Part shown: positions 1 through 17,185 of the stretch, piece after piece | How the letters are laid out: each line of letters opens with the position of its first letter | Position numbering within the stretch: position 1 is the stretch's first letter | Source of the DNA: an uncultured Chloroflexia bacterium | Lineage (GTDB): Bacteria; Chloroflexota; Anaerolineae; Anaerolineales; UBA4823 | Assembly (NCBI GenBank): GCA_963702535.1 | Contig: CAVPDG010000007.1 | Span: 4,949-68,948 of the forward strand | Direction of reading: 5' to 3' | DNA: 64,000 bases | Position numbers and translations under genes: made by a program | The notes under the pieces: generated by a model | What the model saw: only the letters and a program-made list of their open reading frames with translations | Told to the model about the DNA's origin: nothing | Databases searched by the model: none

Positions 1-603
1 GCGCATGAGCCGGTGGAAGAAATCCGGGTTGACCAGGGCGTCCACCAGCAGGTCGTCGACTTTGCGGTAGTAGTAGCCGATGAGGTTGAAGGCGCCCTGG
101 ATCCAGGGGGCGACCACGCCGTCCTCGCCGGTGGCTTCTTTGGCGCGGCGGATGTCGGAGACATCGACATGGGTGATTGGCGGCAGGTACTTGACCATCA
201 GGTCCAGGTCGGTCTCAGACTGGATGAAATATTTCGTGGGGGAGGTCTCAGCGTCGTACTCGTAGATCCAGCGCAGGGCTTCGGTGCAGTCCAGGTCGCC
301 CTCGGGGGTGCGGACGCTGGTGCGCTTGGTCTCGTCGCGACCTTCCGGCTGCGTCTCGATCGCCACCTGCCAGGCAGCGCCGGAGGGACCGTAAGCGTCG
401 TAGGCGGGGGTGCAGTTGCGGTGCATCACGTCGAAGCCGAAGTGCTTGTAAACCTCGGGGGTCTTTTCCACCCAGTCTACATCGTGCGTGCCGTAGAATT
501 CTTTGATGTAATTGACGTGGATGAAGGGCGAGACCGGGATGCGGTCGCCGGATTGCTGGTAGATGAGGCATAAGAGTAGCTGGCGAGGGGTTAGTGGGGT
601 CAT
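1..603 (-). CDS. URO-D (uroporphyrinogen decarboxylase / MtaA-like fold) family protein, 5' part only; the gene runs off the left window edge
   Basis: Not in the ORF track because no stop lies in the window. Hand translation of the minus strand from ATG 603..601 gives MTPLTPRQLLLCLIYQQSGDRIPVSPFIHVNYIKEFYGTHDVDWVEKTPEVYKHF...VAPWIQGAFNLIGYYYRKVDDLLVDALVNPDFFHRLMR. The GAFNLIGYY..VDDLLVDALVNPDF stretch parallels DAFSIPRYLRGTENILMDFVLNPGLL of the 33145..34173 product. Confidence 0.6.
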   Translation of the reverse strand, partial: MTPLTPRQLLLCLIYQQSGDRIPVSPFIHVNYIKEFYGTHDVDWVEKTPEVYKHFGFDVMHRNCTPAYDAYGPSGAAWQVAIETQPEGRDETKRTSVRTPEGDLDCTEALRWIYEYDAETSPTKYFIQSETDLDLMVKYLPPITHVDVSDIRRAKEATGEDGVVAPWIQGAFNLIGYYYRKVDDLLVDALVNPDFFHRLMR

Positions 604-720: not shown

Positions 721-1923
721 CTACCTGTTTCGACCATGCTGCCGGTAATAGTGTACGCCTTCGACCAACGTGCTGAGGTTCTCCCAGCTCACCTCGGGGG
801 TGATGGTGCTGGAGGCAGCCAGGAAGAGACCCGTGCGGGGACCTTTTTCGACCAGCCAGTCGATCTGTTGCTTGACATCTGCAGGCTTGCCGAAGGGCAG
901 GGTAACGCTGACAGAGACGCCGCCCATGATGACCAGGTCTTCGCCGTCTTTGGTCTTCATGGCGCAGATCTTCTCGTAATCCATGCCGAACTCGTACTGG
1001 AAGCCCTGGAAGCCCTTGAGACCCACCTCCAGCAGGCGGGGCACCATCTCCATCAGGTTGCCGTCGCAATGCCAGATGAGACGTAAATCCGTGTCCAGCA
1101 CAGGCTCCAGGCAGCGGGCAAAATGCGGCAGCCATATTTTATCCAGCGACTTGATGTTGACCAGCGTGCCGCGCCCATCCGCCATGTCGAAATCCAGGCG
1201 GTGGAGCGGGGGGAGGTTCCCTTCGCGGTAGGCGCGGGCGGCGGCGCGGTTGTTGAGCAGGGCGTACTCGGCTTGCAGGGCGAAGTGCTTCTCTGCCACT
1301 TCCGGGTAGAGGGCGTACGCCATGAAGTAGTTCTCATAGCCGTAAACGCCGTAGTAGAAATAGGGGAAGTAGATGAAGTTGAAGCCGGTTTTGAGGATAT
1401 CTGCGCCGAAGATATCCTGCACACGCTGCTCCTCGGCGAGGATCTCACGCACGCGGCGCTCTTCGTCGAAATTGGCGATGTCCTGCTCGATGTGGGGGAA
1501 GACGAAGCGCTCCAGGTGCTCGACGGTGGCTTCCGGGGAGTCGATGAGCATGCCATCCAGGATGATCTTTCCGGAGCCGGTGGTGGCGGCGTGGCTGGCG
1601 GCGCAATCCATGACCACCGGGTTGTAGGGGATGTAGTCGTTGGCGGGCGGGGGCTGACCGACCAATTCGTCATAGCCGGTGGCGCTCATGGTGAGCGGGT
1701 TATCGGCGATGAACTGGTCGAGCGAGCACACGCCGATGGCGCGTTGGGCGTCCAGGTAGACGCGCACGGGATCGCGGCGGTAATCGCCGGGATTGGCGCC
1801 CGCCAGGCGCTCGATGTGGCTGTGGTTCATCAGGTGCACCATCCAGCACGGGATGCCGTGGGTGGGCTTGAGGTGGATGGTATCCAGGGCGAGCTGGGCA
1901 GATTCGGAAAGATGCAGGGACAT
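721..1923 (-). CDS. URO-D family protein
   Basis: 400-aa ORF with a URO-D-like barrel end (LRLIWHCDGNLMEMVPRLLEVGLKGFQGFQYE...VIMGGVS). It lies 15 nt downstream of the isomerase gene on the same strand. Confidence 0.75.
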   Translation of the reverse strand: MSLHLSESAQLALDTIHLKPTHGIPCWMVHLMNHSHIERLAGANPGDYRRDPVRVYLDAQRAIGVCSLDQFIADNPLTMSATGYDELVGQPPPANDYIPYNPVVMDCAASHAATTGSGKIILDGMLIDSPEATVEHLERFVFPHIEQDIANFDEERRVREILAEEQRVQDIFGADILKTGFNFIYFPYFYYGVYGYENYFMAYALYPEVAEKHFALQAEYALLNNRAAARAYREGNLPPLHRLDFDMADGRGTLVNIKSLDKIWLPHFARCLEPVLDTDLRLIWHCDGNLMEMVPRLLEVGLKGFQGFQYEFGMDYEKICAMKTKDGEDLVIMGGVSVSVTLPFGKPADVKQQIDWLVEKGPRTGLFLAASSTITPEVSWENLSTLVEGVHYYRQHGRNR

Positions 1924-1938: not shown

Positions 1939-3342
1939 CTAGATGCGGGCGTACTCAATGCCGGCAAGGTGGGCGACTTTCTCCAGGGTATCCGCCCAAC
2001 GCCCGTAAGCCAGCGCCTGGTGGTGCGAGCCGCCGGCGAGGCTGTAGCGGGTGAGGAAGTCAGAAAGGTCGCCATCCGGGCGGAACTTGTAATGTGGGCG
2101 AGCCAGGTCGGGGATGTAGGGGAAGTCGAGTACCTGCCCCTCGGTGACGATCATGCGCAGCCTGCCGTCCTGCACGGTGGTCAGGCTGAGCAGCGTGACA
2201 TCGCCGGGCTTGAGGCTGAAGGCAAGCAGGAGGGGATTATGTTTGACATCGAAGAGGCTGCCGATGGTGCTGCGCACGAGGTGGATGGGCTCATCCGGGC
2301 GCGCCATCTTCCAGTTGGCTTCGCCCATGTGCATCATCAGGGCGGCGTTGTTGGCGAAATCCATGGTGAACATCTCGGTGAAGTTGGCATCCCCCGCCAG
2401 GGCTTGCATCAGGCAGACGGCGGTGGCGCTGGTGACATCGCCCTCACCGCCGAAGCCGTAGCCCTCCGCCAGGAGCATCGAGGAGGCAAGGAAGGGCAGG
2501 GTTTCCAGGCGCCCCTCCTCGCCGACCGCCATGAAGTGCGAGGCAAAGCCCTGCATGCCGCGCTCATCCAGGAGCTGGCGCAACGCCCACTCCAGGCGGG
2601 CGCTGGCTGCGTACTCGTCTTCGGTGATCTCGGGATCAAACTGGAAGCGCTGGCGGTCTTCCTGCAGGCGAGCGGCGATGAGCCCGGCGGGTGCAGCCTG
2701 GGCGCGCTCAGCCAGGGTGCGCATCGAGAGGTGGTGGATCTCCACGCCGGTCTGGGTCAGGAAGGCGGTCTCATCCAAGCCAAAATCGCCCATGCCCTCC
2801 ATGGCGTAGCCGACCAGCCCAATGTGCGTGCGCTGAAGTTGGCGCACGAGGCGGGCGGCATCGCACCAGGCGCGCACCGCGGCGATCGTGCGCGGGTCGC
2901 GGGTGTGCCCGGTGACCACCTGGAAGGAGCGCCCGGCGCGCAGCAGGACATTGGCGAGGTCCTGGACGCCGTGCATGCCGTGGTTGCGGGTCGTGTCGTC
3001 GCCGGTCGTCCCGCTGGTGATTTCGTAGAGCTGTTGGGTGTTGAGGATCAGGATGGGCAGGCGGGTCTTGAGCAAGCCGCGCAGGGCGATATGGCTGGGG
3101 GCGTAGGTGAGCAGCACGACCAGCACCAGGTCTTTGCCCTCCGCTTCGAAGCGGCGCAGCGCCTCATCGACCTGCTCATGCGTGGTGCACACGCCGGGGA
3201 AATCGACCGCAGCGAAAGGGCTGAAAGCCTGCACAAGCTCGCCGGCGAACTGCGCCTCCTGGATCTTCAAATCGGGCCAGCGGTCGTACAGGTCGAACAT
3301 CAAGCCGATCATGCCCAGGCGGGCGCGGTTGGTTGCAGTCAT
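1939..3342 (-). CDS. L-arabinose isomerase (AraA) family protein
   Basis: 467 aa. GYGFGGEGDVTSA and GGSHHQALAYG resemble the AraA regions GYGFAGEGDWKTA and GGAHHTV, recalled from E. coli AraA. Confidence 0.75.
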   Translation of the reverse strand: MTATNRARLGMIGLMFDLYDRWPDLKIQEAQFAGELVQAFSPFAAVDFPGVCTTHEQVDEALRRFEAEGKDLVLVVLLTYAPSHIALRGLLKTRLPILILNTQQLYEITSGTTGDDTTRNHGMHGVQDLANVLLRAGRSFQVVTGHTRDPRTIAAVRAWCDAARLVRQLQRTHIGLVGYAMEGMGDFGLDETAFLTQTGVEIHHLSMRTLAERAQAAPAGLIAARLQEDRQRFQFDPEITEDEYAASARLEWALRQLLDERGMQGFASHFMAVGEEGRLETLPFLASSMLLAEGYGFGGEGDVTSATAVCLMQALAGDANFTEMFTMDFANNAALMMHMGEANWKMARPDEPIHLVRSTIGSLFDVKHNPLLLAFSLKPGDVTLLSLTTVQDGRLRMIVTEGQVLDFPYIPDLARPHYKFRPDGDLSDFLTRYSLAGGSHHQALAYGRWADTLEKVAHLAGIEYARI

Positions 3343-3354: not shown

Positions 3355-4854
3355 CTATGGCGCCGCCCCGGGGCGGGAGACCGCCGGGAGCAGCTCTTGA
3401 TAACGGTGATAAGCGCTTTCATAGGCCGCCTGTTGCTCGGGCAGCGGGGAATAGCGGCGCAGCTTGCCCTGCGGATGCGGGGCGTCGTCCAGCGAGGCGA
3501 AGGCGCCGCAGCCCACGCCGGCGATGACGGCTGCACCCCAGCCGGCAGCCTGCGTGACGGGCGGCACCTGCAGGTGGATTGCGCAGGCGCCGGCAACGAT
3601 CTGGGCCCAGATGCGGCTGCGGGCAGCCCCGCCGACCATGATCAGGTCATCCACGACAACACCATAGCGGCGGATGTCTTCAATCGCCCAACGCAGCTCG
3701 AAGGCGATGCCCTCCAGGGCGGCGCGCGCCAGGTCGTCACACGTGTGGTTAAGGTTCAAGCCGATAAAGCCGCCGCTGCCCATGCCGTAAGCCTCGGCGT
3801 GACCGCCCGCCAGGGGGAAGAAGAGCAAGCCGGATGCGCCGGGAGCGGCGCGGGTTGCGGCTTCATCCAGGTCACGGAAACCCAGGCGGCTGGCATCAGG
3901 CTGGCTCGGGGTGTTCCACAGGCGCTCGAGCAGCCATTCCAGCGACGAGCCCACGCCGCCCAGGCTGCGCAAGGCGCCCCAGCGCGCCGGGGCGGCGTGG
4001 CAGCTCACCGCCATGCCGCTCTTGAGTCCGGTCTCCAGGTCGGGTGGCGTGAGCAATAGCACCCATGCGGTGCCAGTGGAAAGCAGCATTGGTCCGGGGC
4101 GGGTGACTCCCAGCCCGACGGCGGCGCAGTACTGGTCGTGGGCGCCGTTGAAGAGCGGGGTGCCCTGGGGCAAGCCGGTGAGTCGGCTGGCTTCGGCGCT
4201 GAGCGCGCCGACCAGTCGCCCCGAGCGGCGCAAAGGCGATAACATTTCCGGGCGAATGCCCGCCAGGTCGAGCAGGCGCGGGTCCCAAGCGCCAGAGGCG
4301 ATCTCCAGGAGCTGGGTGATGCTGGCGTTTGAGGGATCCATGCACAGCTCGCCCACCAGGCGGTAACCGATGTAATCGTTGACGAAGGTGATATGGCGGG
4401 CGAGCGAGAAGACATCCGGCAGGTTGTTACGGAGCCAGCGGATGTGCATCAGCGGCAGGGCGGGCATGAGCGACCAGCCAGTGATGCGGTGGATCGCCTC
4501 TGCACCGAAGGATTCTTTGACCTGCAGGTATTCCTGCCGGGCGCGCTGGTCCATCCAGCTCATGGCGTTATACACCGGCTGCAGGGCAGCGTCGAGCGGG
4601 ATGGTGGTGCCGCCCTGGGAGGACAGCGAGATGCCCAAGACGGCGTCGCCAGGACCTAGGCTGTCTGCCACGGAGCGCAGCACAGCCACTACCGCCTGCC
4701 AGAGCGCCTGCGGGTCCTGCTCCACCCAGCCATCCTGCGGGGTGAGCAGGGTGTAAGACTGGCTGGCTTGCGCAAGCTGGCGCCCGTGCAGGTCGAAGAG
4801 CAGAGCTTTGGCGGCGGTGGTGCCGACATCCAGACCGATGAGGGTTTCCATCAC
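3355..4854 (-). CDS. FGGY-family carbohydrate kinase (xylulokinase/ribulokinase-like)
   Basis: 499 aa with N-terminal LIGLDVGTTAAKALLFD and C-terminal MVGGAARSRIWAQIVA, both typical FGGY motifs. Confidence 0.85.
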   Translation of the reverse strand: MMETLIGLDVGTTAAKALLFDLHGRQLAQASQSYTLLTPQDGWVEQDPQALWQAVVAVLRSVADSLGPGDAVLGISLSSQGGTTIPLDAALQPVYNAMSWMDQRARQEYLQVKESFGAEAIHRITGWSLMPALPLMHIRWLRNNLPDVFSLARHITFVNDYIGYRLVGELCMDPSNASITQLLEIASGAWDPRLLDLAGIRPEMLSPLRRSGRLVGALSAEASRLTGLPQGTPLFNGAHDQYCAAVGLGVTRPGPMLLSTGTAWVLLLTPPDLETGLKSGMAVSCHAAPARWGALRSLGGVGSSLEWLLERLWNTPSQPDASRLGFRDLDEAATRAAPGASGLLFFPLAGGHAEAYGMGSGGFIGLNLNHTCDDLARAALEGIAFELRWAIEDIRRYGVVVDDLIMVGGAARSRIWAQIVAGACAIHLQVPPVTQAAGWGAAVIAGVGCGAFASLDDAPHPQGKLRRYSPLPEQQAAYESAYHRYQELLPAVSRPGAAP

Positions 4855-4871: not shown

Positions 4872-5739
4872 CTAGCCCTTGACGGCGCCAGCGGTGAGCC
4901 CCTGCACCAGGTATTTCTGGAAAAAGACGAACAAGATGACAACCGGGATGGTGACAAGGACGGAAGCCGCCATCACGTTAGGCCAGTTGAGGTAGAACTG
5001 CCCTACGAAGGACTGCAGGATGCCGGGCGGCAGGGTACGCATCTCCGGTTTGACCATCAGCGTGGCAGCGTACAGGTATTCGTCCCAGGCGATGAGGAAG
5101 GTATATACGCCTGCGGCAATCAGACCCGGGGCGATCATGGGCAGAACTACACGCGTCAGGGCGCCCATGCGGCTGCAGCCGTCGATCAGCGCTGCCTCTT
5201 CGATCTCTTTCGGGATGGTATCGAAGAAGCCCTTCAGAAATCCAGATGGCGAAGGGGATGGCAAAGGTGGTGTTCGCCAGGATGAGCGCCTCGTAGTGAT
5301 TGAGCATCTTGAGGCGCATGAAGGTCAGGTACAGGGAGATGAGCAGCATACCCTGTGGGAACATCTGGGTGCTGAGGATGCCGATCATGGTGCCGTTGCT
5401 GCCGCGGAAGGGGTAGCGCGAGAAGGCATAGGCTGCCAGCGTGGCAACCACCAGGCAGAGCATGGTGGTGCCGATGGTGACGATCAGGCTGTTCTTGAAA
5501 TAGACGGGGAAGAGGCTGCCACGCCCGTAGTCGCCGAAGATCACCGAGTTCATCGTGCTGAGCGTGGGGTTCTTGGGGATCCATTGTGGCGGGATGATAA
5601 ACAGGTCCTCGATGGGCTTGAAAGCAGACGAGATCATCCACAGGATGGGCAGGAAAGTGAAGATCAAAATTGCTACCAGGTATAGGTAGGAGAAGAACTT
5701 GGTCAGCCAACGCTTTTGATGAAGTGTAAGCATGATCAC
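4872..5739 (-). pseudogene. Carbohydrate ABC transporter permease (MalG/CUT1 type), frame broken once near 5238-5244
   Basis: ORF 4978..5739 is a good permease up to ...ANTTFAIPFAIW and then turns to nonsense. ORF 4872..5264 continues in another frame with FLKGFFDTIPKEIEEAALIDGCSR..., the EAA loop. Removing one base at TGGATTTCT restores IWFLKGFF. Confidence 0.85.
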
Positions 5740-6671
5740 AGCTCCAGTTTAGTGGTGCCGCCAATGATGCGCACGAAGACCACGCTGAAGATCAACATCG
5801 CCACCAGCCAGGTGGCGCCGATGGCAGCCCCCATGCCCATATCGAAAGCCTGGAAGGCGGTGCGGTAGATGCTGATTGCCAGGGTCGTTGTGGCGGTGAT
5901 GGGACCGCCCTCGGTCATCGTCCAGATGGTGGTGAAGCTCTGGAAGGTCCAGATGATGGAGATGAGCAGGTCGATCATGATGATGTAGCGCAGGTAGGGC
6001 AGGGTGATATAGCGGAAGCGTTGCAGGGCGGTAGCGCCGTCGATGACCGCCGCTTCGACGATATCGGTGGGGATGGTTTGCAGGGCAGCCAGTAGCACGA
6101 TCATATGGAAGGGAAAGCCCTTCCATATGTTCGCCAGGATGACGGAGAAGAGGGCGGTTTGGGGATTGCCGATCCAGGCGATGAAGTTGGGGATGATCCC
6201 CAGGCTGTTGAGGATGTAGTTGAACATGCCGTACTGCTGGTTGAAGATCCACTTCCACAATAGGGCGGAGACTACGGTCGGTACGACCCAGGGAGTGAGA
6301 AGCACGCCGCGGAACAGGTTGCGTGAGATGATGGACTGGTTGAGCACAATGGCTGTGATGAACCCCAACAGGAACTGCCCGGCAACCGAGCCAATGACGA
6401 AGATGATGGTGGTAACCCATACCTCCCAGTAAGCCGGGCTGGAGAGCAGCGTCTTGAAATTCTCCAAGCCGATCCACTGGACGCCCGCTCCCAGGTTTAC
6501 CAGGCTGTACGAGGTAAAGCTCAGGTAGATGCCGCGGATGAGCGGGTACAGCACCGTGAAAGTGAGGATGGCAAAGGTCGGAAGGAGGAGGAGGAGCGAA
6601 AATTGCGTATTGGTCAGGCGGAAGCCTTTGGAGCGCGGCCTGGAGGGTTCTACGGCTTGATCAACAGTCAT
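5736..6671 (-). CDS. Carbohydrate ABC transporter permease (MalF/UgpA type)
   Basis: 311 aa, polytopic, with an EAA-like TDIVEAAVIDGATALQRF. It overlaps the next permease gene by 4 nt. Confidence 0.85.
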   Translation of the reverse strand: MTVDQAVEPSRPRSKGFRLTNTQFSLLLLLPTFAILTFTVLYPLIRGIYLSFTSYSLVNLGAGVQWIGLENFKTLLSSPAYWEVWVTTIIFVIGSVAGQFLLGFITAIVLNQSIISRNLFRGVLLTPWVVPTVVSALLWKWIFNQQYGMFNYILNSLGIIPNFIAWIGNPQTALFSVILANIWKGFPFHMIVLLAALQTIPTDIVEAAVIDGATALQRFRYITLPYLRYIIMIDLLISIIWTFQSFTTIWTMTEGGPITATTTLAISIYRTAFQAFDMGMGAAIGATWLVAMLIFSVVFVRIIGGTTKLEL

Positions 6672-6768
6672 CTCGAGCGCACCTTTCCCGGGTGATTACC
6701 AGCAATGATGGACCCGGTGTTGGGATTGTAGGGATAACCTATTGGAAACCCCTACGCGTGGGCATTTC

Positions 6769-6825: not shown

Positions 6826-6888
6826 TTAGGGATGGCGCATGCCCTTACGGGAAGGAGCAGCGCCACCCCTGCACAACGGCGTAACTTT

Positions 6889-8319
6889 CTACTCAGACTG
6901 CTTGTAGAGCACTTTCAGGTTTGCAGCCGCCTCGTCCAAGGCTTCCTTCGGGTCGCCGCCGGAGAGCGCTTTGCTCACGGCGATGGCGATGAAGTCAACC
7001 GCCTGGGCATACTGCGGGGTCTTGCTGATGCCATACAGCTTGGCGCCTGCTAAGCCTTCCTGGAAGGTCTTGGCATAGGCATCCTGGCTGTAGTAGGGAT
7101 CTTCCAGGGCGGGTCCGTAGAGCGGGAAGAGGCTGGAGCCCTGGGCATAGTAGAGGGTGATGGCGGGATCGGTGCTCAGGAACTTGATGAAGTTGTAGGC
7201 TTCTTCAGGATACTCGCATTGGTTGAAGAGCACCAGGGTGTGGTGGTGGAAGATGGACTTGTGATCGGCAGGGTTCGCCGGGTCGCCAACTGCCACGGGG
7301 TGCAGAGCGACAGCCATATCCTTATCCCATTCCTCGCCCTTGCCGCTGGTGATGCGCAGCACGTCGCGGGCGTAAGAGCCGTCGGAGAAGCCGCCAGCCT
7401 GGTAGTTCGCCATCACGTTGTACTGGTCGCGGAAGGGGAAGCCGGCGGGCATAATGCCCTCGTCAACCAGCTTCTTCATGAAGGACAGGGCAGCCACACC
7501 GGCTTCGTTGTTGATGATGACCTTGCCGTCCGCATCCAGAACGTCGCCGCCAAAGTTGAACAGCCAGGCGTTGAAGATGTTGGCGGTCAGCTCGGAGCGG
7601 TCGGTGGAGGTGACATAACCCCAGATCTTGTTGCCATTGGCGTCGGTGCCCAATGCGGAGATCGCCTTGGCGGTCTCGTAGAACTCGTCCATGGTCTGCG
7701 GCAGCTTGGTGGGATCCAAACCGGCGTCGGTCATCAGTTTGGTGTTGTAGAACAGCACGTCATGCACGGCGACCCAGGGCAAGCCCCAGGTGTGTGTCTC
7801 GCCGCCCGCGCCGGGGAAGGTGTAGGAGTCGACAACGCCTTCTACGTAGTTGGGCAGAATGTCGGCGGCTTTTTCCTCGAGCGGAGCGATGGCGCCGGAG
7901 TAGGCAAACTGACCGATCCACGGCGCAGCAACCTGGGCGATGCAGGGCGGGTTACCGGAGGCAGCCTCCAGCAGGAGCTGCTGGCGGGTGTTCTCCCAGG
8001 CGATGCCTTCGTATTCGATCTTGACGCCGGGGTTCTGCTTCTGGAATTCTTCCACCATGTAGTTGAACTGCTTGGCGGTGGATTCTTCCATACCGATCCA
8101 GCCGGCAAAGCGGACGACCTTCTCCTCTTCGACGGGCGGCGGCGGTGTGGCGGTGATGACTTTCGTCTCACCTTCGACCTCGACAACGACGGTCTCAACG
8201 ACCTTTTCGCCGGGGACGACGACAGTCTGGACGACGGTTTGCGGAGCGCAGGCTGCGAGGACCAGCGAGAGGATGATCAGCAGTCCGGCAACGGCAAACA
8301 AGTTTTTACGTACGTTCAT
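6889..8319 (-). CDS. Extracellular solute-binding protein of a sugar ABC transporter (lipoprotein)
   Basis: Start chosen at MNVRKNLFAVAGLLIILSLVLAAC, a signal peptide with a lipobox Cys. The ORF track start at 8406 is upstream of the signal peptide. The rest is typical family-1 SBP sequence. Confidence 0.8.
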   Translation of the reverse strand: MNVRKNLFAVAGLLIILSLVLAACAPQTVVQTVVVPGEKVVETVVVEVEGETKVITATPPPPVEEEKVVRFAGWIGMEESTAKQFNYMVEEFQKQNPGVKIEYEGIAWENTRQQLLLEAASGNPPCIAQVAAPWIGQFAYSGAIAPLEEKAADILPNYVEGVVDSYTFPGAGGETHTWGLPWVAVHDVLFYNTKLMTDAGLDPTKLPQTMDEFYETAKAISALGTDANGNKIWGYVTSTDRSELTANIFNAWLFNFGGDVLDADGKVIINNEAGVAALSFMKKLVDEGIMPAGFPFRDQYNVMANYQAGGFSDGSYARDVLRITSGKGEEWDKDMAVALHPVAVGDPANPADHKSIFHHHTLVLFNQCEYPEEAYNFIKFLSTDPAITLYYAQGSSLFPLYGPALEDPYYSQDAYAKTFQEGLAGAKLYGISKTPQYAQAVDFIAIAVSKALSGGDPKEALDEAAANLKVLYKQSE

Positions 8320-8482
8320 TGTCATTCTCATCTTTAAAAGAATTTGACGATCGAATTGGGTTCCGTAGAACTGTGGGATTCTTGTAACCGTTTTTGCAGT
8401 ACTCACCTCCTTGTTTTCGGTTGCGGGTTACCGGCATCGATCCAGCAGAAAACATCCGGTCTCCCTCGGGTACCAGCATCAA

Positions 8483-9523
8483 TTATTTGCCGGCGGCATC
8501 GATCAGGCGGGCTCCATTGTTACAAAGAACATCTGCGACATCGGCGGGGCTCAAGCCGACCGCCTCGGCTGCGCGGCGGAAAGCCAGCAGCATCTCGTAG
8601 AGGAAAAAGGATAGCTGCTCGCCTTCTAACTGGCTCACATTACGCATGTGGGGATCGTCCGAGATATCACCGTACAAGCCGGGCGGCACAAGGTTGATGT
8701 ACGAGCCATTCTCGCAGATGCGGCGCATGCGCATGCGCACGATAGGCAGGTCGCTGCCGAAGAGCACGCGGCGGGCGCCGAAGGCGCGCAGGGCGCCTTC
8801 GATGACTACGGCGCTGGTGTTGGCGCTGAAGTCGAAGAGCATGCTCCGGCTGGCTTGCAGGACCTCGAAGGCGTCGCCGATGTCTTCGGGGCAGTCGGCG
8901 CGCCCGATGTGGGCGATCACCAACTGGATATTGGGGTAGCGCTGCTCGATCTCCAGCATCTGCTGCAGGTTGAGCGGGTCTTTCAGGCGGGCAGGGCGTG
9001 GGATGTGCAGGATGACGATCCAGCCATACCGGTCGGCGACCTCCAGGTGGGCAGGCGGCAGGAAATCGTAGATCTGGATATCTTGCGAGGGGATGTGCAG
9101 CGGCGCCCAGTTCAGGTAGGGCTTCAAGCCCAAGAAGCCGCCACTGAGCACACGCTGCTCCAGCTCTGCTGCCGTCCACTCGGGATTGGTCACCATCAGG
9201 CTGGGAAAGCCTGACTGGAGAGCGCTGTGGCTGGCGTAGGCGTTGGTCTTCTCCATATCGGCGTTCCGCTCAGGCCAGCCAAAGATAAGCGGGGTTACTT
9301 CCTGCTGCGGCAGGAGAAGGCGGTAGGTTTCCAGCAGGTCTTCGATGGCGTTGTCTTCTGCCACGAGGCGCGGCCAGTTCTGGCCACGCGTGCCAGCGGG
9401 CATGGGCACACGGAAAGCCTTGAGCCAGACGTGGGTGTGAATATCCACCATCTTGCTGGGCAAGAAGCCAGCCAGGTGCTCCTGGTAAAAACGGCGGTCG
9501 ACATCCTTGAGGGGAAATATCAA
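8483..9523 (-). CDS. Amidohydrolase-2 family metal-dependent hydrolase
   Basis: 346 aa with VDIHTHVW near the N-terminus and HIPRP / IAHIGR motifs of TIM-barrel amidohydrolases. It overlaps the upstream aldolase gene by 4 nt. Confidence 0.65.
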   Translation of the reverse strand: MIFPLKDVDRRFYQEHLAGFLPSKMVDIHTHVWLKAFRVPMPAGTRGQNWPRLVAEDNAIEDLLETYRLLLPQQEVTPLIFGWPERNADMEKTNAYASHSALQSGFPSLMVTNPEWTAAELEQRVLSGGFLGLKPYLNWAPLHIPSQDIQIYDFLPPAHLEVADRYGWIVILHIPRPARLKDPLNLQQMLEIEQRYPNIQLVIAHIGRADCPEDIGDAFEVLQASRSMLFDFSANTSAVVIEGALRAFGARRVLFGSDLPIVRMRMRRICENGSYINLVPPGLYGDISDDPHMRNVSQLEGEQLSFFLYEMLLAFRRAAEAVGLSPADVADVLCNNGARLIDAAGK

Positions 9524-10356
9524 GGAAACTCTCCTCTCGAAAAGTTATAAGACTTGTATTCTGCGGCTGCGTCGGCGGGCTTGGCAAGCCCCTGGACGAC
9601 AGCCTTGAGCCCGCGCAGGAAGGCGGTGGGATCGTCTGCCTGGATGACGTTGCGCCCAAAGACCACGCCACGCGCGCCGGCTTTCACGGCTTTGTACGCC
9701 AACTCGAGGGCGTCGATTGGGCGGGGGGTCTTTTCAGCCCCCAGGGCAAATATGGGGATGGGTGAGCCTTCCACCACCTCGGCAAAGCGCTCGCCAGTGT
9801 AGAAGGTTTTGATGGCGTCCGCCCCTAGCTCGCAGGTGATGCGGCACATCCTGCGGATGTAGTCGTGGAACTCGGCGGGGCGGGCGCGCAGCCCACCGAC
9901 GGGGAAGACCTCGCCCATCATGGGCACGCCCATGTGCGTGGCTTCTTCCGCAAGCGCGGAGAAGACGCTCACATTCTGGGCTTCATGGGCTTCATCGCCG
10001 GTCTGTAATACCAGGGATGCCATAACCACTTCGGCGCCGGCAGCAACGCCTGTGGCGACAGAGATGGCTTTCGTGGTGTACGCCTGGGTGTACTCCCAGG
10101 GCTCGCAGTGGATGGTGTTCCAGTTGAGACGGGTGATGAAGGTGGGGCTGCCTTTGCCGATGAAGAGGTTGCCGGTGAAGCGCACCATTTGCGAGGTGAG
10201 CAGTACGGCATCCGCTTCTTTGAGGCGCTCGGCAGCAACGGTGTATTTCTCCAGCCCTTCCATGGGACCAAAAGTCTGGCCGTGATCCATGGCGACGACG
10301 ACGGAGTTCTTGCCTTCTGGGAATAGCTTACTGAGTCGTATTTCTTTTCCGTTCAT
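9520..10356 (-). CDS. Class I aldolase of the DhnA/FbaB/LsrF family
   Basis: Start at MNGKEIRLSKLF, with an AGGAG motif 7 nt upstream. VVVAMDHG..., GADAIKTFYTG and ARGVVFGRNV are typical of DhnA-type aldolases. Paralog of 44052..44869. Confidence 0.75.
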   Translation of the reverse strand: MNGKEIRLSKLFPEGKNSVVVAMDHGQTFGPMEGLEKYTVAAERLKEADAVLLTSQMVRFTGNLFIGKGSPTFITRLNWNTIHCEPWEYTQAYTTKAISVATGVAAGAEVVMASLVLQTGDEAHEAQNVSVFSALAEEATHMGVPMMGEVFPVGGLRARPAEFHDYIRRMCRITCELGADAIKTFYTGERFAEVVEGSPIPIFALGAEKTPRPIDALELAYKAVKAGARGVVFGRNVIQADDPTAFLRGLKAVVQGLAKPADAAAEYKSYNFSRGEFP

Positions 10357-10457
10357 TGGATCTCCTGATGATTTATGTGCAGATTCTGCATAGCACCGCA
10401 TCCCTTACCCCCTGCCCTCGAGACTCGCTGGGGCAAGGGAGAAGGGAATGGGGTAGG

Positions 10458-11820
10458 CTACTTCGGTGAGAGCACCTGGACGATCTCTTCGAAGACTTCC
10501 ATGACCTTTTCTGCCTGGGCGTCGGTAATCACCAGGGGCGGCTTGATCTTGACCACGTTGCCCATGCCGGCGTACTTGGAGTTGCCGAAGAGCACGCCGC
10601 GCTGGATGCCCTCTTTCTCGAACTGGTAGGCTTCCTTGCGAGCGGGAGCTTTGGTCTTCTTATCGTAGACCAGCTCGATGCCGAGCATCAAGCCGGGACC
10701 GCGAATGTCGCCGATGAGCTCGTACTTATCCTTCATCTCGGTCAGCTTCTCGGTGAAGTAAGCGCCGACCTTCTGCGCTCGCTCCAACAAGCCCTCTTCC
10801 TGAAGGACTTTTATGGTGGCGATGGATGCGACCAGGGAGACGGGGAAGTGGGCGAAGGTGAAGGAGTGGTCGGCGGCTTTGAAGCCTTTCAGCCCGTCAC
10901 GCGAGAGGTGCCCGGCGATGGGGAAACCGCCGCCGAGGGCTTTGCCGAAGCACATGATATCTGGCACGGTATCATAGAGCTCGGAGGCAAACATGGTGCC
11001 CATGCGCCCGAAGCCGGTTTGCACCTCGTCCCAGATAAGCAGCATGTCGTACCGGTCGCACATCTCGCGGATCGCCTGGTGGTAAGCCTTGGGGAAGTTG
11101 ATCATACCGCCGCTGGCTTGCATCGAACTCCATGATCATGGCGATGGGCTGCCCGTCCATGGCGTTCTCGATGTGCTTGCCCATCATCTTGACGCAGAAG
11201 ACGTCGCATTCGGGGTAAGTGCGCTCGTAGGGGCAGCGGTAGCAGTAGCCCTGCGGGACGCGCACAACATTGCCGCTGTAATTCTGGAAGGGCCAGGGAT
11301 GGGGGTAGCTGAGGCTCATGCCCGCCAGCGTGCGCCCGGAGAAGGAATCCCAGGGTGCGACGAAGTACTTGCGCTCCGGGTACTCGCGCATGGCGAGCTT
11401 CATGGCGCCTTCGATGGCATTGGAGGCGTGCAGGCAGTAGTTGACGCGCTTGAGGTTGCCCGGGGGCGATCTCCGCCAACATGCGGGATAGCACCAGGCG
11501 GGGCATGGTCTCGAAGCTGGTGCGCACGTGGGTGAAGTAGTTGAGCTGCTCCTTGACGGCTGCCATCACCTTGGGGTGGCAGGCGCCAACGTTGAGGCTC
11601 CAGGCTTGCGAGGTGCAGTCGATGTACTCGCGGCCCTTCTGGTCCCAGAAGGAGGCGCCCGCGCCTTGGCGATCTGGATGGGCATCTCGCCGCCCACGGA
11701 GCCGCTGAGCAGGGCTTTCCGACCGGCTGCCATCTGCTCTTCGGAGGGGTTCTCGTACATGGCGCGCACCCAGGAAACATCTACATCTTTGGTAACGTCT
11801 TCGTACTCTAGCATGATCAC
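10458..11820 (-). pseudogene. Class-III (omega) aminotransferase, frame broken three times (about 11664, 11459-11466, 11123-11127)
   Basis: Four ORF fragments concatenate into one class-III aminotransferase: MIMLEYEDV...IQIAK | GAGASFWDQKGREYIDCTSQAWSLNVGACHPKVMAAVKEQLNYF...AEIAPG | NLKRVNYCLHASNAIEGAMKLAMREY...IAMIMEF | MQASGGMINFPKAYHQ...WDEVQTGFGRMG...FGKALGGG. The breaks at 11664 and 11459-11466 sit in G/C runs. Confidence 0.85.
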
Positions 11821-11845
11821 TTACTCCTTGATTGGATGGATATGA

Positions 11846-12868
11846 TTACGGTTCAACCACCACTTTGATGGCTTCGGGGTTGCGGGTAGCTAAGAAGCCC
11901 TGGGCGGTGTCCCCCAGGCTGAAGATATCCGAGACCAGGTCGCCCATGCGCAACTGGGGTAATAAGCTGACGGCGTTCTGGTAATCCTGGATGGTGCAGT
12001 CGATGGAGCCGTGGATGTGCAGCTCGCGGTAGTGCACGTCGTTGAGCTGCATGTTGAGCGTGGAGCCTTTGAGATAGCCGCTGAAGAAGAGCAGCGAGCC
12101 GCCGGCGCGCACCAGGTCGAAGGTCTGCTCGGTGGCAGGGACGCTGGCGGTGGCGACGATGACGCGGTCAAAGGCATAGCCGAAGCGGCTCTTGAGGTCG
12201 ACGACGGTGGGGTCCACAGCTTCGACGGCGCCCAGGTCGAGCGCCATCTCGCGCCGGCGGGGGAGCAGCTCGCTGCTGGTGACGCGCGCGCCCATCAGGC
12301 GGGCGAGCTGGATGAAGGTGGCGCCGATGGGTCCGCCGCCGACGACAAGCACCTGGTCGCCGATCTCGATGCCCACCTGGCGCAGGCCGTGCAGGCAGCA
12401 ACCCACAAGCTCCGCCAGGGCGGCGGCGCGGGGGCTGGCGCCGGCGGGCAGCTTGACGGCGCCGCCCACCTGCACCATCTGGGCAGGGATGTACATATAT
12501 TCAGCCATTGCGCCGTGCACGTTGCAGCCGATGACCTTGGCGGTGGCGCAGATGTTATCCTGCCCGTGCGAGCAGGGATAGCAGTGCATGCAGGGGATGA
12601 TGGGAGCGATGCCCACCAGGTCGCCGGGCTTGTAATCGCTGAGATCGGCGCCCACCGCCACCACCTCGCCGCAGACCTCGTGCCCCAGGATGACCGGGTT
12701 GATGTAGCGGGACGAGGGACCGTTGAAGTACATGCGCTGGTCCGAGCCGCAGATGCCGCAGGTGAGCACGCGGATCAGAAGCCCTTGCAATTCCATCTCC
12801 GGCAGAGCAAAGCGCTCGATGCGGATATCTTCCTTGCCGTACAGTAATGCTGCTTGCGTGTCTTTCAT
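11846..12868 (-). CDS. Zinc-dependent medium-chain alcohol/polyol dehydrogenase (sorbitol/threonine DH-like)
   Basis: 340 aa with CGICGSDQ, GHEVCGEV, a CMHCYPCSHGQDNIC structural-zinc motif and a GGGPIG Rossmann motif. Confidence 0.85.
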   Translation of the reverse strand: MKDTQAALLYGKEDIRIERFALPEMELQGLLIRVLTCGICGSDQRMYFNGPSSRYINPVILGHEVCGEVVAVGADLSDYKPGDLVGIAPIIPCMHCYPCSHGQDNICATAKVIGCNVHGAMAEYMYIPAQMVQVGGAVKLPAGASPRAAALAELVGCCLHGLRQVGIEIGDQVLVVGGGPIGATFIQLARLMGARVTSSELLPRRREMALDLGAVEAVDPTVVDLKSRFGYAFDRVIVATASVPATEQTFDLVRAGGSLLFFSGYLKGSTLNMQLNDVHYRELHIHGSIDCTIQDYQNAVSLLPQLRMGDLVSDIFSLGDTAQGFLATRNPEAIKVVVEP

Positions 12869-12949
12869 GTGCTGTCTCCTCGTAATTCGCAGTAAGCTGT
12901 CAGCGATCAGCGAACAGCTTCCAGATAAGATATAGGGTGAATACCCTTC

Positions 12950-13594
12950 TCAGGCGCCTGCCTGAGGTTTTTGACTGGTGAGCACTTCGCCAACGGCGCC
13001 GCCGGGGTGCGTGACGCCGAACTGCTTGGGGTCGAAGCCCTTCTCAGCGATGACCACGGCGCACAGGGCGTCGCACATGGCGGAGAAGGCGACGGTGCTG
13101 GTTGTGGCGAGGTAGCCGCCCAGCTCGTACTCCTGCAGGCTGGGGATGGGCAGGATATGCCCGCAGGCGCGCGCCAGGGTGGATGCGGTGTTGTTGACAA
13201 AAGCTACCGTGCTGGCGCCGCGCCCGTTGGCGATGATGACCATCTGGTTGACCTCTTTGCTCTCGCCGCCGCGCGACATGGCGACGAGCACATCGCCGGG
13301 CTGGATGACCAGCGTGTGCCCGTGCAGCCCGTCCTGGGTGGAGAGGAACATCGAGCGCCCGCCGGAGCAGGTGAGGATGTGGGCGAAGCGCTCCGCCACG
13401 GCAGCGGAGGTGCCTACCGCGGTGGTCCAAACCACGCCGGGGCAATCGCAAAGCAGGCGGGCAACCTGGGAGAACGGCTCGCCGAGCTGGTCTTGCAGCG
13501 CTTGCAGGGTCTCGACCTCTTGCTGGATGATCTGCTTGCCGGCGAGGATGGCTTGGGAGGGTGGCAAAGTTGGCATCAGGGTTCCTATTCTCAA
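12950..13594 (-). CDS. SIS-domain protein (phosphosugar isomerase / deglycase type)
   Basis: 214 aa with VWTTAVGTSAAVAERFA and VLVAMSRGGESKEV, which are SIS signatures. It overlaps the DeoR gene end by 4 nt. Confidence 0.7.
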   Translation of the reverse strand: MRIGTLMPTLPPSQAILAGKQIIQQEVETLQALQDQLGEPFSQVARLLCDCPGVVWTTAVGTSAAVAERFAHILTCSGGRSMFLSTQDGLHGHTLVIQPGDVLVAMSRGGESKEVNQMVIIANGRGASTVAFVNNTASTLARACGHILPIPSLQEYELGGYLATTSTVAFSAMCDALCAVVIAEKGFDPKQFGVTHPGGAVGEVLTSQKPQAGA

Positions 13595-14362
13595 ACCAGG
13601 ATCACTTCAATCCCCAGGTCGCGCAGGGCGGCGACGAAATCTGGGGGGGCATCGCTATCGGTGATGAGCTTGTCTATGCCGCTGACGGGCATGATGGTCG
13701 CCAGCCCGATGCCGCCGATCTTGCTCGAATCGGAGACGACGATGACCTCGGTAGCAGCCTGGACCATGGCGCGATCGACCTCGGCCTCCAGGACGTTGGC
13801 GGTAGTGAAGCCGTGGGAGAGGGTCATGCCGTCGGTGCCGAGGAACATCTTGTCGACATGCAGCCCTTTGAGCTGATCGACGGTTTGCGGACCGACCAGG
13901 ACTTCGTAGGCGTGGACGTAAATGCCGCCGAGCAGGATGAGGTGCACGCCAGGCCACTGACCGAACAGGCGCACGACGGGCAGGTGGGCGGTGACAACGG
14001 TGATGTTGCCGGAGGTGAGCAGCTCCTTATCCAGGAAGTGAGCGATCTGCAATGGCGTGGTGCCCGAGTTCGATGATCACCCTTTCGTCGCGGCGGATCA
14101 TCGCAGCGGCGGCGCGCCCGATGCGCTCCTTCTTCTCCCGCTCGGCGTCCAGGTACAGTGCCAGGGGGGTGGCGCTTTCCAGCGTGACCGCCCCACCATG
14201 CACGCGCTTCAGCAGCCCTTGCTCCTCCATGATCTGCAGATCACGGCGGATGGAGACTTCTGAAACACCCATATGCGTACTCAGGTCGGCAACGCGCACG
14301 GTGCGGTTGCGGCTCAGCTCATCCAGGATGGCAGAGCGGCGCTTATTGGTGAGGGCAGCCAT
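13591..14362 (-). pseudogene. DeoR-family transcriptional regulator, frame broken once at CCC 14063-14065
   Basis: The N-terminal HTH (ORF 14027..14362, ...RRDLQIMEEQGLLKRVHGGAV...VIIELG) joins the sugar-binding DeoR C-domain (ORF 13591..14052, TTPLQIAHFL...KMFLGTDG...VVSDSSKIG). Dropping one G restores LGTTPLQIA. Confidence 0.85.
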
Positions 14363-14573
14363 GGCTTGGGCGATTATCCTGAAAACCGATCGAATGCAAT
14401 TGAATATTTACGAATGAAACATTTTCAGGTTATTAATCTCGAAATATTGTACAATTATTCACCATTTCTGTCAATGCGGCTTTCATTAGAAACAAAAACT
14501 GTTTTCGTTTGGTGCGTTAAAAAAATTCAATTGAATGTGAGCGAGTAAGAGATGTTCTTGTTCGATTCGTTGA

Positions 14574-14775
14574 TTAAATTGGCTCGAATGGGTGGAAACC
14601 TGGCGCACGCTGCGCCTGTGGTACCGGGCGGGTCCGGGAGAGCCGTGGGCGATGCTCGGCGAGCCGCTGCAGCACCGCAATGGTGAGATCACCTTCAGCA
14701 CAGACCACTTTACCCAATTCGCCTTGTTCGGTGAGGCGGGCTACGAGATGAGACTTCCCGATGATTGTGCGCTAG
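14574..14775 (+). pseudogene. 3' remnant of a secreted-protein gene (C-terminal ~65 codons only)
   Basis: The open frame LNWLEWVETWRTLRLWYRAGPGEPWAMLGEPLQHRNGEITFSTDHFTQFALFGEAGYEMRLP... begins abruptly at an AT-rich/GC-rich boundary with no plausible N-terminus. Removing one C from CCC at 14757-14759 makes it end ...RLPMIVR-stop. Confidence 0.35.
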
Positions 14776-14947
14776 GGGGGCGAACAACTGCTGGCCCGGC
14801 GTTGAGCGCGCGCGACCATAACAGTTGACCGTCACAGATCCGGTGACTGCCGACTGGCAATCAGAAGAAGGTGGTTCAGGGGTTGTTACCCGTGAGCCAT
14901 CTTTTTTTGATCCCCTCGAATTGTTAAAACTTCGGTGAAAATGGCTG

Positions 14948-14976
14948 TTGACATACGACTGAAATTTCAGTATAAT
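14948..14976 (+). promoter_or_regulatory. Consensus sigma70-type promoter with an embedded 14-bp palindrome (candidate GntR operator)
   Basis: TTGACA (14948-14953), a 17-nt spacer, then TATAAT (14971-14976). The perfect palindrome ACTGAAATTTCAGT (14958-14971) fills the spacer and the first base of the -10. It lies 75-95 nt upstream of the GntR gene. Confidence 0.6.
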
Positions 14977-15050
14977 TTCAATAATATAGCACCAATGTTT
15001 TTGTTAGCCTGTACGTACGCCCGACCCGTAGAATAATGTGATCTTTATCC

Positions 15051-15915: not shown

Positions 15916-17185
15916 ATGAAAGGAAAACTATTTACAATCGCCAGCATCTTGATGGTCATTTCCATGTTGCTGGCAGCCTGCGCCCAGACCCCCGCAGCCA
16001 CCACGGAAGCTGAAAAGGTTATCAAGATTGGATTGATCGCCCCTTACACCGGACCCAACTCGCGTGTAGGCGATGAGCTGAAAGCAATCCATGAGACGGC
16101 TTTCGGGGAAATCAACTGGGAAGTCTGCGGCTACAAGATCGAGCCGGTGTACATCGACGATGAGTCCGACCCGGAGAAAGCCGTGCGGGCGTTCAAGGAT
16201 GCCGTGCTCAAGGAGAACATCCAGGCGGCAACCGGCGGTTACCATAGCTCAGTCACCGTGGCGCTGATGGACCCGCTTGCCGAGAATAAGATCCCCTATT
16301 TCTTCCCACAGAACGAGTTCGAGCGTGATTGTTGAGAAGTGGAAGTCCGATCCTGTGAAATACGCCTACCACTCGTGGAAAGGTCGCCCGAGCCCCGTTA
16401 AGCTGATGGTGGGCTATGACCTGGCTTTGTTCAAGAAGGCGATTGCGAATGGCACCTGGGCGCCTGCCAACCAGAAGTTCTCCATCCTGTGCGAAGACAC
16501 CGATTTCGGTCGTGATATGTGCGCCGGCTTCAAGAATATGGCTGAAGGCAACGGCTGGGAGATGGTTACCGAGGACTATGTGCCTCTGGACGCCTCCGAT
16601 GTCTATCCTATCCTGACCAAGGTCCAGGCTGCAGACCCGTCCCTGTTCTTCATCTCCATGGGCGCCCCCGCAGTAGCCACGGGCATCATCAAGCAGACGC
16701 GTGAGGTTGGCTTAAACTCCTTGGTGATCAGCCACGGTTTGGGCTGGATCGGCGAGTGGTACGAGCTCACCGGCGATGCCGGCGATTACGTGCTGGATAT
16801 GATGCAGAAGTGGAGCTCACCCGAGCAAATCAAGTATCGTGACGCTTTCAAAGCGAAATACAACATGGACCCCAGCGCCAGCCTGTCGATCTCCTATGAC
16901 TACGATAAATTCTTCATCAAGATCATGGAGCGCGCTTGCGAGAAGTACGGCAAGCTGGACAAAGAGTCAATCTTCAACATCGGTAACGACGAAGTCAGCA
17001 AGGGCATTCTGACCTACAAGGATGGCTTGTGGTATGACGAGCTCAAGTGGGATGCCGACAGCCTGCCTGAGATGGTCGTAGGCGAAGGCTACTACCTCGA
17101 TCCTGTTGTCCAGTACTTCGGCGGCGAGGCCACGATCATCTGGCCCGAAAACAGAAAAGAAGCAGAGCTTCAGATTAAACAATAG
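15916..17185 (+). pseudogene. Periplasmic binding protein of a LIV/HAAT-type (branched-chain amino acid-like) ABC transporter, frame broken once around 16300-16325
   Basis: Lipoprotein signal MKGKLFTIASILMVISMLLAAC, then IKIGLIAPYTGPNS..., typical of LivJ-like type I binding proteins. The protein continues in a second frame (ORF 16277..17185: ...VIVEKWKSDP...FFISMGAPAVATGIIKQTREVGL...). Confidence 0.8.

Follow-up and report, generated by a model that had tools for sequence, protein, structure and literature searches.

In the L-fucose, L-rhamnose and L-arabinose routes (FucI/FucK/FucA, RhaA/RhaB/RhaD and AraA/AraB), an aldose is isomerised to a ketose, phosphorylated, and split by aldol cleavage into dihydroxyacetone phosphate (DHAP) and an aldehyde; FucA and RhaD are class II aldolases. 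In the nag and aga/gam routes of amino-sugar catabolism, the proteins include a deacetylase that is an Amidohydro_1 metal amidohydrolase, the SIS-type deaminase-isomerase AgaS or NagB-II, a ROK or PfkB kinase, a tagatose-bisphosphate aldolase (LacD/AgaY), in some organisms from the DeoC/LacD superfamily, and the regulator AgaR, and nitrogen is removed by an isomerising deaminase. In the kanosamine pathway, NtdC, NtdA and NtdB, which are a sugar-phosphate dehydrogenase, an aminotransferase and a phosphatase, take a sugar phosphate from CH-OH through C=O to CH-NH2. The azasugars DNJ and DAB-1 are products of a three-gene cluster, GabT1-YktC1-GutB1 (PMC8382821, PMC8466323, PMC11844564). Here we compare with these systems an operon on the minus strand of a 64,000-nucleotide stretch of DNA (the window) from an uncultured Chloroflexia bacterium of the Anaerolineales (assembly GCA_963702535.1, contig CAVPDG010000007.1, positions 4,949 to 68,948).

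Like the fucose, rhamnose and arabinose systems, the window operon has an AraA/FucI-fold isomerase, an FGGY kinase and, as in the fuc regulon, a DeoR-family regulator at its head. It differs in having an aldolase of the class I, DhnA type, in the lack of equivalog scores, and in the addition of a class-III pyridoxal phosphate (PLP) enzyme, a Zn dehydrogenase, a SIS protein, an Amidohydro_2 protein and URO-D-like genes. Set against nag and aga/gam, it covers the same functional categories. The amidohydrolase is a metal enzyme, SIS protein and kinase are both present, the aldolase comes from the DeoC/LacD superfamily, as in some organisms, and the regulator is of the DeoR type, with AgaR as its best model. 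The families, however, are Amidohydro_2 rather than Amidohydro_1, a KpsF-like SIS rather than AgaS, FGGY rather than ROK/PfkB and DhnA rather than LacD/AgaY, and nitrogen removal would use the PLP enzyme and the dehydrogenase in place of an isomerising deaminase. By analogy, the trio of SIS protein, Zn dehydrogenase and PLP enzyme could run the kanosamine sequence in reverse, although Gfo/Idh/MocA and DegT-type enzymes do this work in the kanosamine pathway, which has no SIS protein, and medium-chain dehydrogenase (MDR) and class-III enzymes would do it in the trio. The azasugar cluster also joins a class-III aminotransferase, whose substrate is a sugar phosphate, to a PF00107 Zn-type dehydrogenase. 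In the window a SIS protein is present and the phosphatase is not, so that the three-gene cluster is incomplete, and the module is embedded in an uptake and catabolic operon under a DeoR repressor. Azasugars are known to be made by Bacillus, Paenibacillus, Streptomyces, Chitinophaga and genera like them, but not by Chloroflexota.

Gene spacing, common strand, a promoter-like site and synteny mark the locus as a probable single operon for sugar breakdown, headed by a repressor (Table 1). An open reading frame (ORF) listing and Pfam assignments bore out an earlier, preliminary description of the locus as co-directional, tightly packed minus-strand genes of the named families running from 14362 down to 1. 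The DeoR/SIS, aldolase/AH2 (the Amidohydro_2 protein) and permease 1/permease 2 pairs have 4-nt overlaps, and the remaining gaps are 12-217 nt. All of the families named in that description are present, but it had overlooked frameshifts, and the aminotransferase, DeoR and permease 2 genes are not single open frames here. Its remark that no textbook pathway fits has held up: none of the operon's enzymes reaches an NCBIfam equivalog cut-off, and no characterised pathway or homologous operon with a matching gene set was found in the literature. As judged from its genes, the locus is an operon of the sugar isomerase-kinase-aldolase kind to which an amine-handling front end is joined, and it has no characterised counterpart that we found in the literature. 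An Rfam scan of the operon matched no riboswitch or RNA family.

We consider it about an even bet that a DeoR repressor controls this operon, that the operon breaks down a sugar or polyol bearing an amine (probably an N-substituted one), and that it has two layers. The first layer, the core, would comprise CUT1 uptake, the AraA-like isomerase, the FGGY kinase, the DhnA aldolase, a divergent binuclear-type amidohydrolase and the URO-D-like proteins; the second would be the trio. An N-substituted amino sugar or polyol would be taken up and its N-substituent hydrolysed. The PLP enzyme of the trio would remove or relocate the primary amine through a carbonyl intermediate (C-NH2 to C=O), the Zn dehydrogenase would interconvert that carbonyl with a hydroxyl (C=O to CH-OH), and the KpsF-like SIS protein would shift the carbonyl of the resulting sugar phosphate, leading to the aldolase branch or to central metabolism. 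The AraA-like isomerase would act on the free sugar, with FGGY phosphorylation and then class I aldol cleavage to DHAP and an aldehyde. We infer the catabolic direction, the order of steps, the substrate class and the phosphorylated intermediates; action on phosphorylated intermediates is suggested by the SIS protein and the DeoR family.

The preliminary description had suggested looking for the operon in related genomes. We compared about 130 related loci, drawn from a genome scan, a metagenome scan and database neighbours (loci are cited by L numbers, contigs by C numbers, genomes by G numbers). The operon is conserved, but what had been treated as one unit is really a conserved core joined to a mobile trio. 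The genome scan with the aldolase gave 80 loci, every one from uncultured bacteria, in Anaerolineae and other Chloroflexota, Armatimonadota, Planctomycetota, Christensenellaceae, Spirochaetota, Lentisphaerota and Kiritimatiellia. The recurrent core in Anaerolineae, at 55-87% identity, has the order DeoR - aldolase - FGGY kinase - Amidohydro_2 - (CUT1 binding protein - permeases) - URO-D-like - isomerase - URO-D-like. It occurs with or without the transporter and is common in Chloroflexota, Planctomycetota and Armatimonadota, and rearranged aldolase, isomerase, kinase and amidohydrolase sets are found in other phyla (Planctomycetota, Armatimonadota and others). Homologues of the second URO-D-like gene, 39-61% identical, take the same distal position in L021, L025, L047 and L049. 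DeoR orthologues, 61-62% identical, head operons both with and without the trio. In other phyla, many loci have a second type of aminotransferase, with the motif GHILRMSPP and an Arg discussed below, next to the aldolase. In L034, an orthologous operon, the slot after DeoR is filled by this other type of class-III aminotransferase (32% identical, Arg kept), with short-chain dehydrogenase (SDR), aldo-keto reductase (AKR) and M20 genes further down; going by this content, genes that are not orthologous appear to have taken over an 'amine plus redox plus amide hydrolase' function.

The trio was found in only a minority of the 80 aldolase loci (L014, L027, L028, L029 and L033), where, as in the window, DeoR precedes it and the aldolase follows. 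With the PLP enzyme, the metagenome scan added about 30 orthologous loci, 68-100% identical. The string DeoR-SIS-Zn dehydrogenase-PLP enzyme is present in about 20 metagenome and 5 genome loci and is kept wherever upstream sequence exists. The surroundings of the trio vary. L107 repeats the complete window gene order, while in L116, L137, L028 and L029 the aldolase and amidohydrolase are followed by a Dpp/Opp-type (SBP_bac_5) importer in place of CUT1. In L103 and L104 the trio operon goes on with an FGGY kinase, two isomerases and an M24 peptidase, and in L098-L102 the trio is terminal in its operon, opposite another isomerase-kinase operon. The other arrangements are SIS - Zn dehydrogenase - PLP enzyme - Gfo/Idh/MocA - MFS - DHDPS (L140), GntR/UTRA - SIS - PLP enzyme (L143), DhnA - DeoR - Zn dehydrogenase - PLP enzyme (L145), and two in which the Zn dehydrogenase is only 36% identical to that of the window: DeoR - Zn dehydrogenase - PLP enzyme - SIS alone, with neither transporter nor kinase (L141), and DeoR - Zn dehydrogenase - PLP enzyme - HAD phosphatase (L144). 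A paralogous set on contig C16 of the same metagenome-assembled genome (MAG; G000), at C16:376000-385600 (locus L139, 5282-14574), has the order GntR/UTRA - ECF transporter - FGGY kinase - PLP enzyme - M20 peptidase - SIS. Its PLP enzyme is 50-59% identical, is frame-split too and directly follows the FGGY kinase; the ECF-type transporter consists of a 281-aa gene of no assigned family, a double ATPase and a CbiQ-like T component. Altogether, four uptake systems (CUT1, Dpp/Opp type, MFS and ECF) occur as partners of the trio or its paralogue, as do metal amidohydrolases or peptidases of three unrelated kinds (AH2, M24 and M20). Among 40 relatives of the same family or order, the PLP enzyme is present in one and the aldolase orthologue in one, so the module is accessory and patchy. 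These neighbourhoods indicate that the trio is a separate, portable, patchily distributed module.

Since a primary amine is required by a class-III PLP enzyme, an amine-bearing substrate or intermediate can safely be presumed, in support of what the preliminary description had drawn from the class-III aminotransferase. The amine step would be tied to the core, since DeoR is common to both kinds of operon, the slot in L034 has been refilled, and the trio or its paralogue keeps company with four importers and three amidohydrolases or peptidases. Several observations weigh against the two-layer catabolic reading. The trio also stands alone with a regulator only (L141) or with a HAD phosphatase (L144), compositions that make it look biosynthetic rather than catabolic. 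The CUT1 binding protein of the window is 75-78% identical to that of trio-less core operons, so the trio is not obviously tied to a new imported substrate. As no equivalog threshold is reached, every activity is assigned at the family level. Three operon genes are frameshifted in this assembly. Finally, class-III transaminases handle the carboxylate of glutamate or 2-oxoglutarate with an Arg that is missing from the PLP enzyme, which may thus not be a conventional transaminase.

Table 1. Features of the operon in the window, by descending position
Feature	Position	Strand	Basis and remarks
Candidate promoter, TTGACA-17-TACAAT (11/12 consensus)	14446..14474	minus	Near-consensus sigma-70-like match 5' of the DeoR gene
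DeoR-family repressor, HTH_DeoR + DeoRC	13594..14362	minus	Pfam; ORFs 14362-14027 and 14052-13591
SIS phosphosugar isomerase, single-domain, KpsF/GutQ-like, without CBS domains	12950..13594	minus	Pfam SIS
Zn-dependent medium-chain dehydrogenase, polyol/threonine dehydrogenase type	11846..12868	minus	Pfam ADH_N + ADH_zinc_N
Class-III (Aminotran_3) PLP enzyme, 'GNVVKIKPP' subfamily	10458..11814	minus	Pfam on fragments
DhnA-type class I aldolase (DeoC/LacD family)	9520..10401	minus	Pfam; true start likely 10356
Amidohydro_2 metal hydrolase (AH2), divergent	8483..9523	minus	Pfam
CUT1 (SBP_bac_1) substrate-binding lipoprotein	6889..8406	minus	Pfam; start likely near 8319
ABC permease 1	5736..6671	minus	Pfam BPD_transp_1
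ABC permease 2, two ORFs	4872..5739	minus	Pfam; 1-bp insertion near 5238-5250
FGGY sugar kinase	3355..4854	minus	Pfam; XylB is nearest NCBIfam
AraA/FucI-like aldose-ketose isomerase	1939..3342	minus	Pfam, NCBIfam
URO-D-like protein	721..1923	minus	Pfam; recurrent in related operons
Second URO-D-like gene, runs past window edge	1..603 (603-<1)	minus	Fragment without Pfam match; homologues elsewhere

The PLP enzyme belongs to Aminotran_3 (PF00202, 191.7 bits on the C-terminal fragment), and its translation contains WDEVQTGFGRMG and FGKALGGG. DEVQTGxGRxG is the class-III motif, and the PLP lysine presumably lies in the GK motif. In all 35 orthologous loci, and in 114 of the 115 database homologues that could be scored, the motif GNVVKIKPP has Lys in place of an Arg. 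This Arg, which stands before the PPL motif, is presumably the one that binds the alpha-carboxylate (Arg398 of E. coli GabT). The window enzyme thus lacks the Arg that is conserved in class-III transaminases; the aligned column holds Arg in the enzymes of type 2 and in three solved relatives, 7vno, DGD and 9wqz, and Glu in ACL racemase, a non-transaminase. By this signature the 'GNVVKIKPP' enzymes are a distinct class-III subfamily. The best 120 database homologues all come from metagenomes or MAGs and bear generic names.

The strongest rival to catabolism, an unlikely one in our judgment, makes the trio an azasugar or aminopolyol biosynthetic branch under the same DeoR regulator. The SIS protein would give a ketose phosphate, the PLP enzyme would aminate it, the Zn dehydrogenase would oxidise a hydroxyl and the amine would cyclise, so that the product would be an iminosugar or aminopolyol made from a sugar-pathway intermediate. 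The exact DeoR - Zn dehydrogenase - PLP enzyme - HAD phosphatase content of L144, the absence of transporter and kinase from L141, the MFS gene adjoining the module in L140 and the sharing of the binding protein with trio-less operons are all as this proposal would have them. Against it, the window operon has no phosphatase, the link to L141 and L144 runs through a Zn dehydrogenase only 36% identical to the window's, and the trio of the window sits inside a catabolic-type operon whose counterpart in L034 holds another aminotransferase and reductases in the same slot. Azasugar aminotransferases of the GabT1 type have the consensus SGNxFRxxxFPNx7LxVPxPYCxRC (PMC8382821). The C-terminal half of it, [FW]P-x8-[LV]xVPxxYCxRC, is matched with the same spacing by the PLP enzyme, but this half is largely present in the unrelated type-2 aminotransferase too, and the full consensus gave no regular-expression match, the best gapless alignment having 7/16 specified positions. 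Of the three options in the preliminary description, the aminopolyol one has the closest known chemical precedent, which comes from the azasugar literature, although the azasugar aminotransferase consensus is lacking here.

It is quite unlikely, though compatible with catabolism, that the PLP enzyme is instead a lyase, or else an epimerase or racemase of an amino compound. A lyase would be a phospho- or ammonia-lyase whose step comes after that of the FGGY kinase, and neither deamination nor inversion would call for an amino acceptor. The replacement of Arg by Lys throughout the subfamily, set beside the Arg of DGD, 7vno and 9wqz and the Glu of ACL racemase, favours this idea, as does the presence of Ile 2-epimerase and amino-acid racemases among the closest solved relatives. 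The PbfA ammonia-lyase model scores equal to the GABA-transaminase models, and the C16 paralogue directly follows an FGGY kinase. Phospho-lyases may carry Lys at the Arg column, but 6tor was not among the 20 matches to a short-motif PDB query. Moreover, the Lys could still bind a carboxylate or phosphate, and a keto intermediate produced by transamination is the simplest explanation of why a dehydrogenase is always paired with the enzyme. Lyases as such are documented among class-III PLP enzymes (PMC8154272).

The source MAG is 85% complete, in 32 contigs. Comparison with contig C20, L014 and L104 showed that three 1-bp indels spread the PLP-enzyme gene over three frames: a loss near 11659 in GCGCGCGG, a gain near 11455 in CCCCCGGG and a gain near 11126 in TT. 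A 1-bp insertion near 14069 separates the helix-turn-helix of DeoR from its sensor domain. The indels lie in short repeat or homopolymer contexts. Contig C20 (23.2 kb, same MAG) carries a second copy of window 1888-15000 at 93-97% identity. Relative to the window it has many 1-bp indels, mostly different and hitting different genes: in C20 DeoR is intact and the SIS, Zn dehydrogenase, aldolase, AH2 and FGGY genes are broken, and in the window the reverse holds. Codon differences between the copies are mostly at third positions, with 297 synonymous and 71 non-synonymous (about 4:1); in the PLP-enzyme gene the figures are 20 and 7. These counts indicate purifying selection on all of the operon genes. 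In L014, from a short-read Anaerolineales MAG, the DeoR, SIS, Zn dehydrogenase, PLP-enzyme and aldolase genes are all intact at 80-86% identity, and the PLP enzyme is 451 aa. FGGY paralogues are frame-split genome-wide in the source MAG (7/17). Because the indels differ between copies, synonymous changes are in excess, the L014 orthologues are intact and FGGY genes are so often split, the frame breaks are judged to be assembly consensus errors and not gene decay. It is very unlikely that the operon is decaying, with the aminotransferase, DeoR and permease genes genuine pseudogenes and the gene combination without present function in this organism. The five frame-breaking indels inside the operon would suggest decay, and the indel near 11455 is present in both MAG copies. 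That shared indel, however, sits in a C5G3 run, and the mostly different lesions of the two copies, the codon-position statistics, the comparison with L014 and L104 and the intact orthologues elsewhere led us to reject the pseudogene reading.

C20 is probably a co-binned strain variant; it serves as an internal control for assembly errors, but it also raises the number of gene copies that the MAG seems to have. At window 14600-14603, C20 has about 1.2 kb extra, encoding the N-terminal part and signal peptide of a secreted repeat protein that is reduced in the window to a C-terminal stub, the window copy being deleted or mis-assembled. Frame splits also affect the DhnA paralogue (window 44040-44857) and a Peripla_BP_6 gene (about window 15916-17185). 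With single-base indel errors genome-wide, pseudogene calls in this MAG are unreliable.

Family evidence for the SIS protein bears on the suggestion, in the preliminary description, of an Amadori-compound route with a deglycase such as FrlB. The protein is 214 aa (204-214 aa) and consists of a SIS domain only, without tandem CBS domains. Its nearest NCBIfam models are KdsD (93 bits against a cut-off of 505) and GutQ (90 against 481), too low to call a KpsF/GutQ arabinose-5-phosphate isomerase, and its best PDB matches are 3fxa, 5uqi and 2xhz. In alignments with 2xhz (E. coli KdsD) and 3fxa (Listeria), the columns assigned to His88, Glu111, Glu152 and His193 (HPGG) are kept and the Lys59 column holds Thr, as in 3fxa. 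We take Lys59, His88, Glu111, Glu152 and His193 to be the KdsD catalytic residues, and the Ala in GMGASG of the 2xhz chain to stand for the wild-type Lys59. No FrlB, AgaS or GlmS-type family was among the NCBIfam matches at E<=1e-5, and NagB-II scored only 27.5 bits. FrlB and GlmS-type SIS proteins have two SIS domains and about 330 aa. An Amadori or fructosamine route is thus highly improbable, and FrlB itself was ruled out, on SIS type, single domain and lack of family-level similarity. The combination of ABC importer, kinase and SIS protein does resemble frlBONMD, some loci have Dpp/Opp-type binding proteins and the paralogous module has a GntR/UTRA regulator; but the kinase is FGGY and not PfkB, the family of FrlD, and the aminotransferase and Zn dehydrogenase would be left without a role.

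The Zn dehydrogenase has the make-up of an MDR polyol dehydrogenase, with ADH_N and ADH_zinc_N domains and the motifs GICGSD, GHE, CMHCYPCSHGQDNIC, GGGPIG and C-x2-C-x2-C-x7-C; we read GHE, C-x2-C-x2-C-x7-C and GGGPIG as the zinc and NAD sites. It scored 147 bits with Tdh, 146 with IolM and 127 with idonate 5-dehydrogenase, all below the NCBIfam cut-offs, and matched 4ej6 and 1e3j (ketose reductase) in the PDB. The aldolase is of the DhnA-type class I (PF01791, 63.7 bits). Its GADAIKT aligns with GADIVKT of MJ0400 and GAQIIKT of LsrF, and MDHG and FGRNV (the GRN loop) are conserved; presumably the Lys of GADAIKT is the Schiff-base lysine and GRN the phosphate-binding loop. NCBIfam scores were 138.7 against 297 for LsrF, 118.4 against 299 for TIGR01949 and 149.9 against 241 for PRK07226 (ADH synthase). 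The lsr operon (LsrK, LsrF) and archaeal MJ0400 provide the closest solved structures and hidden Markov models, with the Lys of GADxxKT aligned, and LsrK is a secondary match of the kinase, but it is scarcely credible that aldolase and kinase are an LsrF/LsrK autoinducer-2 pair, or the aldolase an ADH synthase for archaeal-type aromatic amino-acid synthesis, since the scores are far below cut-off (139 and 150 bits as above, and 208 against 528 for LsrK), LsrG, LsrACDB or any CUT2 transporter, LsrR or any SorC regulator and DHQ synthase II are missing from the operon, and the aldolase keeps company with isomerase, kinase and importer genes. Both identities were ruled out on these scores and missing partners, and the equivalence with LsrF and ADH-synthase clusters that the preliminary description had raised for comparison is not supported.

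AH2 is an Amidohydro_2 protein (PF04909, 60.6 bits) with the HxH, His, His and Asp residues of metal ligands on a TIM barrel and a fold that matches Amidohydro_2 proteins; D27, H29, H31, K134, H173, H205, D231 and D258 are invariant across 24 sequences. A PDB sequence search gave no match for it. Its AlphaFold model has a pLDDT of 94.8. By fold, the closest proteins are decarboxylases and lactonases of Amidohydro_2, at TM ~0.5 only; despite the confident model, such distant matches were uninformative as to function. The isomerase scored 148 with AraA (cut-off 622), and the kinase 303 with XylB (380) and 157 with FucK (471), all short of equivalog status. For DeoR, scored on an intact orthologue, the nearest NCBIfam model is AgaR, with 195 bits against a cut-off of 260. 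The nearest PDB entries to the CUT1 binding protein are 7x0i, 4qrz and 5ysb, which we take to be oligosaccharide binders; as these matches were weak, no substrate hint was drawn from them.

Other genes were noted around the aldolase and the trio. Further along the same contig (C7), from about window 30000 to 64000 and beyond, there are more paralogous sets of FucI/AraA-like isomerase, FGGY, DeoR and DhnA aldolase genes, for example C7:41608-51175 and C7:64595-74457, forming a large island of related sugar operons. In L014 (791-3279) and L094, from the closest relative, MttB-like and URO-D-like genes with their own DeoR lie just 5' of the trio operon. A conserved 614-aa protein without a Pfam domain is encoded between a FucI-like isomerase and the type-2 aminotransferase, beside the aldolase, in L026 (G015; 5227-7068), L024 and L087. 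BNR_2 (sialidase-like) genes lie near the aldolase-aminotransferase pair in L040, L046 and L058 (Armatimonadota and Phycisphaerae), and DegT-type aminotransferases were seen in L027, L033, L038 and L078. In those lineages, the BNR_2 and DegT genes may point to substrates that are complex amino or nonulosonic sugars.

For this organism, apparent pseudogenes in the MAG are assembly artefacts, which matters for metabolic reconstruction from it. For the PLP enzymes, the change of Arg to Lys provides a sequence signature of a new class-III subfamily, whose members are at present annotated as '4-aminobutyrate aminotransferase', and the three enzymes with their repressor define a compact, testable unit that is intact in many metagenomes. 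In a bolder and rather improbable extension of the catabolic reading, the 'GNVVKIKPP' enzyme, Zn dehydrogenase and SIS protein would be an unrecognised mobile module that handles the amines of sugar phosphates or aminopolyols and runs azasugar-type chemistry catabolically. In uncultured Chloroflexota and other phyla it would connect with one or another uptake system and aldolase branch, and it would form the first breakdown route for aminopolyols, iminosugars or amino sugars with the amine at a carbon not adjacent to the carbonyl. The isomerising deaminases NagB and AgaS cannot handle an amine so placed, as in 3- and 4-amino sugars, aminopolyols and possibly iminosugars. If the catabolic reading is right, abundant uncultured heterotrophs (Anaerolineae, Planctomycetota and Armatimonadota) would strip nitrogen from modified sugars and polyols by an undescribed transaminase- or PLP-based route.

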